A stretch of 32,000 nucleotides of DNA from Synechococcus sp. A15-28 (GTDB lineage: Bacteria; Cyanobacteriota; Cyanobacteriia; PCC-6307; Cyanobiaceae). This document shows positions 11,337 to 15,686 of this stretch, one piece after another; the stretch's first letter is position 1; every line of letters starts with the position of its first letter. The notes beneath the pieces are model-generated. The model saw only the letters and a program-made list of their open reading frames with translations, had not been told where the DNA came from and made no database searches. The DNA lies in the NCBI RefSeq assembly GCF_014280175.1, contig NZ_CP047931.1, forward strand, positions 2,220,001-2,252,000, read 5' to 3'. Both the position numbers and the translations under genes were made by a program.

Positions 11337-11953
11337 TCCAAGACGCGGCCACCCTGCCGGTGGTGGAGACCTTCCATTCCCTCCAGGGTGAAGGCCATCA
11401 CAGCGGCCGCAGTGCCTTCTTCATCCGTCTGGCTGGCTGCAATGTCGGTTGTCCCTGGTGTGACACCAAGCACTCCTGGCCAAAGGCTGCGCATCCGCAG
11501 CGCCATCTGGACGACCTCGCCCAAGAAGCCGCTGCAGCGGAACGGCAGGGAGCCGCCTTCACCGTGATCACCGGTGGAGAGCCGCTGCATCACAACCTCG
11601 ATGCACTGGCGTCGGCCCTGCGGGAATCCAGCTCCAATGCCTTGCATCTGGAAACCAGCGGCATCGATCCCCTCAGCGGCAGCCCGGATTGGATCACCCT
11701 GTCACCAAAACCGCATCGACCCCCGCGTCAGGAGCTTCTCAGCCAGTGCGACGAGCTCAAGGTGGTGATCCACGGGCAGACCGATCTGGACTTCGCCCAA
11801 GCCATGGCAGCTGCCGTTCGCCCATCAACCCAGTTGCTGCTCCAACCCGGCTGGGGCAGCGATCAAGGCCAGCAACTGGCGGTTGAGCATGCACAACGCA
11901 ACCCGCGCTGGCGGCTCAGCCTGCAGACCCACAAGTGGATTGGAGTGCGCTGA
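11333..11953 (+). CDS. queE: 7-carboxy-7-deazaguanine synthase (radical SAM)
   Basis: Radical-SAM cluster motif [12 protein letters not shown] with a typical QueE N-terminus ([10 protein letters not shown]). ATGA overlap with the pyrG stop. Confidence 0.85.
11904..11938 (+). repeat. Left copy of a 35-nt perfect direct repeat (inside the queE 3' end)
   Basis: The sequence cgcgctggcggctcagcctgcagacccacaagtgg is identical at 15637-15671. Confidence 0.95.
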
Positions 11954-12048
11954 TCCTTCCTTCCGCAATCTCGAAAAACCCTACAAATGTCGGACGCGTG
12001 AATTCGCTCATAACAAGAACATAAATATCAGCTGAAGAACTACGTATC

Positions 12049-15000
12049 ATGACAGACCTCGACGGAAATGGCCTGGTAGATGGCTCTGAGTTGATCGCTT
12101 ATCAGCTTTTCGATGATGGCAACTCGATCACCATCACGAACAGGCGAGGTCGAACATTCTCGGACGCAACATCAAGATTCTGGAATGTCATTGCAGGCAC
12201 GCAAGTTGACGGCGGATTCCTCGTGCTGCGAGCCAGACAAACCCGCCGACGTGGATTGCGATATCAAACATGGACTACAGATGAAACAGGAACAATCAAT
12301 GGAAGATCGCGAGGCTGGCGTAGTGGTCAATCCATGGCCAACCAGGGGATCGAAAACATCTTCAATCTTGACCTCAACAATGATGGATGGATTGGAGATC
12401 AGCCACCGGAAGAATCAGGTCCAATCAACGATGGTGCAGCCACCTTCGCCATTGAGGGCACTCCACAACTGGGGCAGGTTCTCTCCATTTCCCTAACCAA
12501 CAGTGATCCTGATGGTGACGGCACTCCAACCGTTGCATGGCTTGCTTCCAATCCAGATGGAACCTGGTCTCAAGTCGGCTCCGATTCACAAATCACCATC
12601 TCCGCCGATCTTGAAGGTCGTCAACTCCTCGCCAACATTTCCTATATCGATGGTGATGGCTTCAGCGAGGACGTCTCAACCGAACCGGTCTTCGTTCCCA
12701 TCACAAACACGGATGATTACGGAACAACGCCCGAAAGCAGTGGCTTTCTTGCCATGGCAAGCCGTCTTGAAGGTGATCTCGAAGTTGCGGGAGACCTTGA
12801 CTGGTTCAAAGTCGAATTAGAGGCCGGCAGAAGTTATATTTTTGAGCAAATTGGGACAGGATTAGCGGACCCACTATTAACACTTAAAGACGAATTAGGA
12901 TCTATCCTCGCCAGCAATGACGATAGCGAAGGTGAATTAAATAGTCGAATAAACTTTGAAGCCGAAAGATCAGGATACTACTACCTCGAAGCTGGCTCAT
13001 ATCTCAATCAATTCACGGGCAAATATTTCATTGGCGCGTACGAAGATATAACGCAGCCTGAAGATCCCATTAACGACGGTGCAGCCACCTTCGCCATTGA
13101 CGGCACTCCACAACTGGGGCAGGTTCTCTCCATTTCCCTAACCAACAATGATCCTGATGGTGACGGCACTCCAACCGTTGCGTGGCTTGCTTCCAATCAA
13201 GATGGAACCTGGTCTCAAGTCGGCTCCGATTCAGAAATCACCATCTCCGCCGATCTTGAAGGTCGCCAACTCCTCGCCAACATTTCCTACATCGATGGTG
13301 ATGGCTTCAGCGAGGACGTCTCAACCGAACCGGTCCTCATCCCTGTCACTCCCGTCAACGATGGTGCAGCCACCTTCGCCATTGACGGCACTCCACAACT
13401 GGGGCAGGTTCTCTCCATTTCCTTAACCAACAATGATCCTGATGGTGACGGCACTCCAACCGTTGCGTGGCTTGCTTCCAATCAAGATGGAACCTGGTCT
13501 CAAGTCGGCTCCGATTCAGAAATCACCATCTCCGCCGATCTGGAAGGTCGCCAACTCCTCGCCAACATTTCCTACATCGATGGTGATGGCTTCAGCGAGG
13601 ACGTCTCAACTGAACCGGTCCTCATCCCTGTCACTTCCGTCAACGATGGTGCAGCCACCTTCGCTATTGAGGGCACTCCACAACTGGGGCAGGTTCTCTC
13701 CATTTCTCTAACCAACAGTGATCCTGATGGTGACGGCACTCCAACCGTTGCATGGCTTGCTTCCAATCCAGATGGAACCTGGTCTCAAGTCGGCTCCGAT
13801 TCAGAAATCACCATCTCCGCCGATCTGGAAGGTCGTCAACTCCTCGCCAACATTTCCTATATCGATGGTGATGGCTTCAGCGAGGACGTCTCAACCGAAC
13901 CGGTCCTCATCCCTGTCTCAAACTCTGACGATTACGGAGCAAGCCCCGAGAGCAGTGGATCTCTCGAGATTGGAAGCAGTCTTGAGGGTAATCTCGAATC
14001 CCTAGGAGATCTAGACTGGTTCAAAATTGAATTAGATGCTGACAAGTACTACAACTTTGAGTTGACTGGAACTACCCTTGCAGACTCATTCCTGGCCTTG
14101 AAAGAAGCCAATGGCAATGTCATCTCTAGCAATGACGACGGTGGAGAAGGATTCAGTAGCCGCATCATTTTTTCCCCTGAATCTTCAGGCACTTATTATC
14201 TTGAGGCAAGCGCATATAACAACGAGTATACCGGAACATATTTAATTACCGCCGACGAAGCAGATCCCTTGCCCCCTGGCTACAACCCTGAAGACGGGTT
14301 TGGCCATATTAACGCTAAAAGAAGCTTTGAAAAGTTACTTGGAATAACCCTCAATGATGCCGCAGACCTTGGTGGTGATTTATGGGGTCTCGACAATATC
14401 GGGGCACCAGAAGTTTGGACAGGCAGCAATAGCTTCTCGGGCGCAATCGGATCGGGAACAGTCATCGCCGTCATCGACACAGGTGTTGACCTAGATCACC
14501 CGGAATTCCAAAACAGAATTGCTCAAGGTTATGATTTTGTCGATTACGACAATATTGCCGACGATGGTGAAGGCCATGGCACGCATGTTGCCGGGACCAT
14601 CGCGGGCGCTGATGACGGTGAAGGAATCACCGGCGTCGCACCAGATGCATCAATCATGCCAATTCGAGTTCTCGACGATGAAGGCTATGGTTATACATCC
14701 GACATCATCGCTGGAGTCCGATGGGCAGCAGACAATGGTGCCGATGTCATCAATCTGTCGCTTGGAGGCGGAGGGTATAGCCAGGCTATGGCCGACGCAA
14801 TCGCCTACGCATCAGACCTTGGCTCGGTGATTGTCATGGCGGCTGGCAATAATGGCGGTGAATCTCCTATATACCCTGCAGCCCACGCAGAAACCCACGG
14901 CATCGCTGTTGGAGCCGTAAATCAAGAAAAGTCGTTTGCCGATTTCTCGAATCGAGCCGGATTTACGTTTCTTGATTATGTGACAGCCCCTGGAGTCAAT

Positions 15001-15516: not shown

Positions 15517-15579
15517 AGCTCTCCAATACATTCCGTTGCTCTGCTCGGTCAAGATTGACTCGTTGAAGTTGGAGTTCGT

Positions 15580-15686
15580 TGGGCCGGAGCATCGATTCAG
15601 ACCAGCAGCTGGCGGTGGAGCATGCCCGGCGCGCCACGCGCTGGCGGCTCAGCCTGCAGACCCACAAGTGGCTCGCAATTCGATGA
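15580..15686 (+). pseudogene. queE: Displaced/duplicated remnant of the queE 3' end
   Basis: Translates to ...[29 protein letters not shown], against the live queE C-terminus ...[31 protein letters not shown]. An in-frame stop lies at 15564-15566 with no upstream queE body. It contains the right copy of the 35-nt repeat (15637-15671). Confidence 0.8.

Follow-up and report, generated by a model that had tools for sequence, protein, structure and literature searches.

A second subtilase gene stacked behind queE in Synechococcus sp. A15-28, probably through homologous recombination in flanking genes

Downstream of queE, the gene for the radical SAM enzyme 7-carboxy-7-deazaguanine synthase, Synechococcus sp. 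A15-28 carries two genes for S8 subtilases, pepA and pepB, and between them a second, partial copy of the queE 3′ end. We analyzed this arrangement within a 32,000-nucleotide (nt) stretch of the genome (NZ_CP047931.1, 2,220,001–2,252,000), referred to below as the window; all coordinates are window positions unless a contig is named, and L numbers are our labels for the loci and contigs compared with it. We propose that a block made up of queE, pepA, the decayed 5′ piece of a dehydrogenase gene (dh′) and a queE 3′ remnant (′queE) entered this genome by a double homologous crossover that stacked pepA upstream of pepB, and we assign this reading a probability of about 0.6. The contents of the queE–queC interval would probably be exchanged by host homologous recombination between the conserved genes on either side of it. 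This reading draws on a dh′::′queE junction that occurs in two right-flank backgrounds, on a queE–pepA block that is shared across diverged pyrG genes, and on the lack of any recombinase, tRNA or phage signal.

A dehydrogenase fragment is fused to the queE remnant

The 65-nt spacer that follows pepA is a decayed copy of the start of a dehydrogenase gene, dh, in which the ATG has become ATA and an internal stop has appeared. The spacer begins ATA CAT TCC GTT GCT CTG CTC GGT... (translation IHSVALLGQD*LVE), and the dh start of contig L098 begins ATG CCT TCA GTC GCT CTG CTC GGA... (translation MPSVALLGTGLLGE). The two agree in 32 of 44 alignment columns, with a local score of 16 against 6.5 ± 1.2 in shuffled sequences, none of 2000 shuffles reaching the observed value. 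A comparison of dh′ with the start of the window's own dh, which lies intact downstream of pepB, gave no significant match. In both the window and contig L099, the dh′ piece matches the dh of L098 and L097 far better than it matches the live dh downstream.

The dh 5′ piece is joined to the queE 3′ piece at ≈15579/15582, which places two non-homologous sequences side by side next to a homologous anchor. A join of this type is illegitimate or duplication-like, and it is not one that site-specific integration makes. We also viewed a TTGGG motif at the junction by eye as candidate microhomology, and the junction proved too decayed for a call. Both the remnant and dh′ are non-functional scars.

The queE 3′ end recurs as a 105-nt homologous copy

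A repeat search paired 11849–11953, the end of the live queE, with 15582–15686 over 105 nt at 81% identity and an offset of 3733. This bears out the second queE 3′ end that an initial annotation, made from the sequence without database searches, had placed at ≈15580–15686. The two ends align without gaps as 35 in-frame codons with a stop in common, so the indel implied by the peptide strings of that annotation is unneeded. Alignment confirmed its 35-nt identical run (11904–11938 = 15637–15671, at the same offset), and the seven mismatches in the 28 nt before this core and six in the 15 nt after it could be read directly from the sequence. The copies share 10 of 13 fourfold-degenerate sites. 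The block codes for the most conserved QueE motif and is intact in none of 80 queE alleles from other picocyanobacterial species, the closest having three mismatches; accordingly, the two window copies share lineage-specific states.

How unusual the perfect run is was judged from 3160 pairs of independent picocyanobacterial queE alleles, compared over the last 105 nt. An identical run of at least 35 nt occurs in 14% of the pairs with 80–85% identity and in 6% of those with 75–80%. The 105-nt homology is far above chance, and the perfect 35-nt run is unexceptional. That the identity might be just the most conserved part of queE had been allowed for at the outset, and in statistical terms these pairs largely say so.

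We scanned metagenomes for the block with any base other than A after it, a pattern that leaves out the window's live-type tail, and obtained only two contigs, L091 (contig positions 13759–13806) and L092 (545–592), both from one unrelated organism. The queE of this organism has 34% amino acid identity to that of the window, yet 38 consecutive nt are identical at the core, a nucleotide-level convergence of a conserved motif with G+C-rich codon use. In that scan the core was not found flanking other cargo, a pattern that the initial annotation had envisaged, and there was no exact match to it among 2.9 million viral contigs. The core is also polymorphic in wild relatives, with a single-nucleotide polymorphism at 11914 in five of ten live copies and two changes in the remnant of L096. 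Taken together, the core statistics, the polymorphism and the unrelated match mean that the perfect identity needs no explanation of the attachment-site (att) type. Because independent wild contigs (L093, 98.8% identity; L096, 98.2%) carry the same arrangement of pepA end and remnant, the arrangement is not an assembly artefact.

Gene copies and fragments were also seen at two other picocyanobacterial loci. In L036, a Synechococcales metagenome-assembled genome, the live queE is followed at a distance of 7.4 kb by another, similarly oriented queE that is complete in length but degenerate (10001–10618 paired with 18058–18666; 46% amino acid and 69% nt identity). The radical-SAM Cys motif of this second copy has given way to a Gly/Asp-rich stretch, and the pair may reflect the same displacement, here of an entire gene. 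In L038, the 66 nt at 6608–6673 repeat the 5′ end of pyrG (86%) ≈750 nt before the live gene, and this gene fragment may be a comparable scar in the neighboring dps–pyrG interval.

The shared block begins at the pyrG/queE border

The exact window QueE is present on 13 marine metagenome contigs, and all ten of those examined run on into pepA. Compared with the window, L081, L082 and L088 differ by 6.3–7.8% in pyrG, by 0.5–0.7% in queE and by 0–1 of 95 nt in the queE–pepA spacer (IG1); in the pepA N-terminal region, 0–1 of 376 nt differ in L081 and L082 (L088 ends at the pepA start). Against L081 and L082, mismatch density drops from 7–10 per 100 nt to ≈0 over the stretch ≈11.07–11.39 kb. On its left, the shared block is thus bounded by the pyrG/queE border, in the 3′ end of pyrG (≈11070–11390), and the 35-nt block does not mark its limit.

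The protein encoded by the live queE shares 76% identity with that of L098 as against 65–66% with those of L024 and L007, the nearest loci by right flank. The identity matrix alone was indecisive as to whether queE is a clade outlier, as queE evolves quickly everywhere (62–81% identity between species), and here the 76% match to L098 helped. The low divergence of queE, IG1 and pepA across pyrG backgrounds, together with this match, indicates that the whole of queE travels with pepA. IG1 is homologous to the queE–pepA spacer of L098 (score 45 versus 8.0 ± 1.3 in shuffles); this homology is confined to pepA-bearing contigs, and IG1 has no similarity to the spacer between the remnant and pepB (IG2).

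Two mosaic patches, recombination tracts some hundreds of bases long, lie within the block in other contigs. In L085, a stretch corresponding to window positions 12095–12551 is 12% diverged inside an otherwise near-identical queE–pepA block. In L100, a 175-nt patch (11878–12052) is 32% diverged inside a block of ≈1% divergence; it spans exactly the last 76 nt of queE plus IG1, and the history we propose leaves it unexplained.

The remnant and the right flank

We compared segments of the remnant with 86 queE alleles. The 34 nt before the core are nearest to L098 and L003 (29/34), the core matches the live copy in 35 of 35 positions versus 32 for L098, and the last 15 nt are nearest to L007 (12), followed by L024 and L094 (11). 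To judge by these nearest alleles, the remnant appears chimeric, donor-like before the core and like the family of the right flank after it, which makes a crossover in or next to the 35-nt block plausible. The flank itself points to L024 and L007: dh identity is 81% to L024, 77–78% to L007 and 69% to L098, and queC is nearest to that of L024. IG2 weakly resembles the L094 spacer that separates queE from a pepB-like gene, with shared CAACTCTCAG..TTCAGG and a score that 48 of 2000 shuffles reach, and its length is similar (157 nt versus 154 nt in L094).

Decay is uneven along the remnant. Its first 21 nt (seven codons) carry six substitutions, all of them amino acid-changing, and have lost an invariant Trp, and in the L099 remnant this part contains indels; the other 28 codons in the window resemble a functional allele.

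States of the queE–queC interval in wild relatives

Across 80 related picocyanobacterial loci, most of which keep the pyrG–queE ... queC–pabB synteny, the gap between queE and queC ranges from 13 bp to 9.4 kb, and the interval is a picocyanobacterial hotspot of flexible genes. Judged by flanking genes, the closest relatives (L001, L003, L007 and L024; pyrG 92–94%, sigma factor 89–91%) have an empty site in which queE is followed by 30–70 nt, dh and queC, and L101 is alike. S8 peptidases of the pepA/pepB family follow queE in L014 (≈45%) and in L094 and L095, and L013 and L021 show weaker matches.

Further states are seen in contigs retrieved by means of the pepA C-terminus. In L098 and L097, the order is queE, IG1, a pepA orthologue (80–87% nt identity) and, beginning 9 nt past the pepA stop, an intact dh, with neither remnant nor pepB. 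In L099, a pepA orthologue is followed by the same 65-nt spacer, a queE remnant, a 28-nt spacer of the L001/L003 type and dh, again with no pepB. The window and L093 have the pepA end, spacer and remnant and then IG2 and pepB, and L096 ends inside the remnant. The dh′::′queE junction is therefore present in two right-flank backgrounds, that of the window and that of L099. The versions of the peptidase at this site are divergent: pepA-type in L098, L097, L099 and L100, pepB-like in L094, and the 45% homologue in L014.

L093 departs from the window within pepB. This contig (positions 588–728) matches the window at 98.8% across the end of pepA, the remnant and ≈37 codons at the start of pepB, and from window position 15955 onward it continues in unrelated A+T-rich sequence; either pepB is disrupted or replaced in this variant, or the contig is an assembly chimera.

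A proposed history and its alternatives

The source of the block would be a lineage with pepA directly between queE and dh, as in L098 and L097. In such a genome, dh at about +55 nt would have been joined illegitimately, and once, to position −105 nt of queE; a tandem duplication, or a circularized or concatemeric fragment, would be expected to leave a novel junction of this sort. The product would carry queE homology on both arms, the whole of queE with pyrG on the left and the 105-nt ′queE on the right, and could enter other genomes by an ordinary RecA-type double crossover, a step that the two backgrounds of the junction support in part. The ancestor of the window would have had queE, IG2, pepB and dh. 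A left crossover in the 3′ end of pyrG or the 5′ end of queE and a right one in or beside the resident 35-nt block would have replaced the resident queE body, with the donor queE taking over its function, and would have left the last 15 nt of the resident queE, IG2, pepB and dh downstream. The imported block would measure ≈4.3–4.5 kb, from ≈11.1–11.4 kb (the pyrG 3′ or queE 5′ end) to 15637–15671. No site-specific recombinase would be involved, and pepA would have been added upstream of its diverged counterpart without replacing it. The G+C content at third codon positions (0.48 in pepA, 0.63 in pepB and 0.72–0.82 in neighboring genes) suggests that pepA is the newer arrival.

This picture keeps part of what was first described and changes the rest. 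The initial annotation had rightly seen an incoming queE that kept the gene intact and displaced the resident 3′ end beside a resident paralogous peptidase, and of the mechanisms it offered, homologous recombination with a donor allele and unequal crossover are favored by the evidence and an att site with a lost integrase is not. The 3.7 kb between the 35-nt blocks, taken there as the inserted unit, gives way to a block that starts near the pyrG/queE border and includes all of queE, and the dh piece at ≈15526–15579, directly upstream of the remnant, had been missed. An insertion of low G+C content with one gene between the copies holds insofar as pepA is low, but the tract runs past the remnant into pepB. 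In agreement with the lack of integrase, tRNA and transposase first reported, Pfam scans of the window's 21 long gene-like open reading frames (ORFs) revealed no integrase or transposase, whole or fragmentary, and the window contains no tRNA or tmRNA target. Phage QueE proteins are at most 41% identical, with no DNA match, and lend nothing to a phage origin.

Several points weigh against the history proposed here. The population contigs were picked for an identical QueE, which biases the comparison in queE, though not in IG1 or pepA. The donor and recipient assignment of the remnant rests on 34 nt plus 15 nt, the IG2–L094 similarity is marginal (p ≈0.02), and the decay pattern of the remnant is consistent with a crossover inside it without proving one. 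The model also leaves unexplained that the L099 remnant and the live queE of L100 agree at 48 of 50 positions in their tails. The pre-insertion state (queE ending ...KWLAIR*, then IG2 and pepB) is in no recovered genome, and a search for the resident allele by this ending yielded nothing but short, partial QueE ends whose tails read LGVR or LGLR. The order of arrival could also be reversed, with pepB coming later through crossovers in the remnant and dh.

The dh–queE join could instead have been made in this very background by homology-facilitated illegitimate recombination. Donor DNA with pyrG/queE, pepA and ≈55 nt of dh would have been anchored by homology on the left and joined at its right end to codon −35 of the resident queE; all of the remnant would in that case come from the resident genome, and L099 would owe its arrangement to a later exchange of the right flank. 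One event would thereby yield both the junction and the loss of the resident queE body, the left breakpoint would lie in pyrG/queE as observed, and such a mechanism has been put forward to account for similar displacement arrays (PMC5361080). We nevertheless consider it unlikely. The junction also occurs in the L099 background, so that at least one further crossover inside the remnant is needed anyway; the remnant should be flank-like throughout, whereas its pre-core part is nearest to L098 and L003 and not to L024, L007 or L094; and such events reportedly occur less often than ordinary homologous recombination by orders of magnitude (PMC5361080). A chimeric remnant, the entry of one junction into two backgrounds and direct queE 3′ repeats with an identical block at the crossover would all follow from an insertion of the Campbell type, in which circularized ′queE, IG1, pepA and dh′ integrated by a single crossover in the resident 35-nt block. 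The live queE would in that case consist of resident sequence as far as the core and of donor sequence beyond it, but the whole gene is L098-like (76%) and not L024/L007-like (65–66%), and the low-divergence block begins near the pyrG/queE border and not at 11904, which leaves this route improbable to a greater degree.

Two further explanations fare much worse. An ancient in situ tandem duplication, running from the queE 3′ end through the peptidase and followed by divergence of the peptidases while gene conversion kept the 35-nt block, would make the dh′::′queE join a classical novel junction and fits the similar architecture of pepA and pepB. A single duplication of this kind was rejected for its unrelated spacers (IG1 and IG2), its unequal divergence (synonymous sites saturated between pepA and pepB, whereas the queE copies share most of their fourfold sites) and a dh′ that is of the L098 type and unlike the downstream dh; moreover, L099 has the junction with no second peptidase and L098 has pepA with no junction. 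We therefore hold it very improbable. Least supported, and only slightly less credible still, is site-specific integration, in which a tyrosine or serine recombinase acting on a 35-nt att core would have placed a 3.7-kb element in the 3′ end of queE, the integrase having since been lost. Direct repeats with an identical core do flank low-G+C cargo, and partial target-gene copies mark such islands in Prochlorococcus (10.1101/2020.12.28.424599). The window, however, has no integrase or fragment of one, the core is missing from the viral contigs and its metagenome matches are unrelated queE genes only, a dh fragment sits inside the supposed attR arm, the block boundary at pyrG/queE means that the repeats do not bound the moving unit, and the core is polymorphic in relatives.

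Together, queE, IG1, pepA, dh′ and ′queE may form a self-contained homology cassette that needs no integrase, a tentative idea that we think has the odds against it. An accidental junction would then have given the cargo the 3′ end of its target gene as a right arm and the whole target gene as a left arm, and host RecA could suffice to add the cargo behind queE in picocyanobacteria of any kind, regardless of what lies downstream. Were this general, such scars would mark additive island growth in integrase-poor marine Synechococcus.

Relation to known systems

How marine picocyanobacteria gain flexible genes is debated, and most of their cells lack plasmids, prophages and integrases (10.1101/2020.12.28.424599). 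The closest concept to the locus described here is the replacement flexible island, and the closest outcome is the displacement array. Replacement flexible islands are exchanged by homologous recombination in flanking core genes, a concept of Lopez-Perez and Rodriguez-Valera as outlined in 10.1101/2020.12.28.424599. Like them, the locus has a fixed position between core genes (pyrG/queE and dh/queC), divergent S8 peptidase variants in different lineages, no mobility genes, and recombination breakpoints and mosaicism in its flanks. Unlike them, its outcome is additive, the incoming variant being stacked beside the resident one, and it keeps two gene-fragment scars, dh′ and ′queE, that would record the event.

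In displacement arrays, known from type VI secretion system effector–immunity loci and from Rhs and contact-dependent inhibition loci, a new 3′ module arrives through upstream homology and the old 3′ end is orphaned downstream (Kirchberger et al. 2017, PMC5361080). The window similarly combines an incoming copy of a conserved upstream sequence, an intact gene and a resident 3′ remnant downstream, with no integrase. Its displaced gene, however, is a housekeeping gene of the queuosine pathway that serves as a homology arm only and is not a variable toxin; there is no immunity logic; and the remnant is joined to a piece of a second gene, dh, from downstream.

The locus also resembles the tycheposons of marine picocyanobacteria and their other tRNA-targeting integrative elements (10.1101/2020.12.28.424599) in that an island grows by addition beside a conserved gene and a partial copy of the target 3′ end separates the cargoes. 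In the window, by contrast, there is no integrase or replication module, the target is protein-coding and not a tRNA or tmRNA gene, the repeats are not at the borders of the moving unit, and a dh piece lies at the junction. Homology-facilitated illegitimate recombination is a process of naturally transformable bacteria (PMC3240628; discussed in PMC5361080). A one-sided anchor with a non-homologous join would likewise give dh′::′queE and delete the recipient DNA between the two. The window differs in that its junction is common to two backgrounds and its remnant looks chimeric, which makes the illegitimate join probably older than the insertion in the window.

Overall, the locus is a good example of a known process that differs by its housekeeping homology arm and by the fusion of fragments from both flanking genes. 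On the reading we favor, it would provide a base-level record of integrase-free additive gain with fragments of two flanking core genes fused at the junction, and its empty, single-gene and stacked states can all be recovered from wild contigs. It also carries a warning, as a direct repeat of a gene 3′ end with an identical block can mimic attL and attR without site-specific recombination.

The peptidases

PepA shows a weak match to W_rich_C, four tandem repeats of ≈95 amino acids and two PPC domains by Pfam and repeat searches. PepB shares this architecture at ≈48–49% amino acid identity, and synonymous sites are saturated between the two genes, with fourfold sites 29% identical. The repeats of pepA occupy 12425–13939 as four units of 285–300 nt (NDGAATFAI.GTPQLGQVLSISLTN.DPDGDGTP...) with 91–95% DNA identity. 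In pepB, three more diverged copies of the ≈95-amino acid unit lie at 16534–17243. Pfam has no match to the unit, and it is at these repeats that metagenome assemblies of the locus are interrupted. Orthologues of pepA stand directly 3′ of queE in L098, L100 and L081–L090, and a pepB homologue (48%, N-terminal region) directly follows the live queE in L094 and L095. In L098 (1636–4763), the pepA orthologue is called in pieces (397 and 154 amino acids, with the N-terminal part uncalled), which reflects either a pseudogene or an assembly collapse of the internal repeats.

The longest ORF for pepB, 15622–19068, starts at an ATG inside the queE remnant in another frame, which adds 74 spurious residues. 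The start at 15844 agrees with the L094 homologue, and the longer ORF is an annotation trap through which pepB might be falsely extended.

Gene layout and other features of the window

The features of the locus are collected in Table 1. The interval 11954–19068 holds the two peptidase genes and no others. In a scan of a genome collection that did not hold the source species, the best QueE match was 71%, and exact look-ups of the window's Dh and QueC proteins gave no match.

Table 1. Features of the queE–queC region and its left flank in the window (all on the + strand)
Feature	Position	Strand	Remarks
Sigma factor gene	7988–9121	+	
dps	9154–9630	+	
pyrG (CTP synthase)	9702–11336	+	Conserved left flank; 92–95% amino acid identity to relatives
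queE, live (7-carboxy-7-deazaguanine synthase, radical SAM)	11333–11953	+	Pfam Radical_SAM, Fer4_12
queE 3′ end recurring downstream	11849–11953 (105 nt)	+	Holds 35-nt block 11904–11938
IG1 (queE–pepA spacer)	11954–12048	+	Donor-type; unlike IG2
pepA (S8 subtilase, 1155 amino acids)	12049–15516	+	Pfam; proposed imported cargo
dh′ (5′ piece of decayed dehydrogenase gene)	15526–15579, right limit approximate	+	L098 type
′queE (displaced queE 3′ remnant, 105 nt)	15582–15686	+	35 in-frame codons, TGA end; 35-nt block 15637–15671; apparently chimeric
IG2 (remnant–pepB spacer, 157 nt)	15687–15843	+	Presumed resident queE–pepB spacer
pepB (S8 subtilase, 1074 amino acids, paralogue of pepA)	15844–19068	+	Presumed resident allele of the site
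dh (NAD-binding 3-hydroxyisobutyrate/6-phosphogluconate dehydrogenase-like)	19072–19926	+	Pfam NAD_binding_2, NAD_binding_11; live, resident right flank
queC	19923–20603	+	Conserved right anchor of the variable interval; followed by pabB

Promoter and terminator scans of 11800–16000 gave no more sites than shuffled sequence, and no Rfam element lies in the spacers. The sole Rfam match in the window is unrelated to the locus, a Glutamine-II riboswitch aptamer at 27.7 kb (RF01704, 27748–27805, − strand; 49.9 bits versus a gathering score of 33). It lies ≈25 nt upstream of a 202-amino acid + strand ORF that has no Pfam match, the two being on opposite strands.

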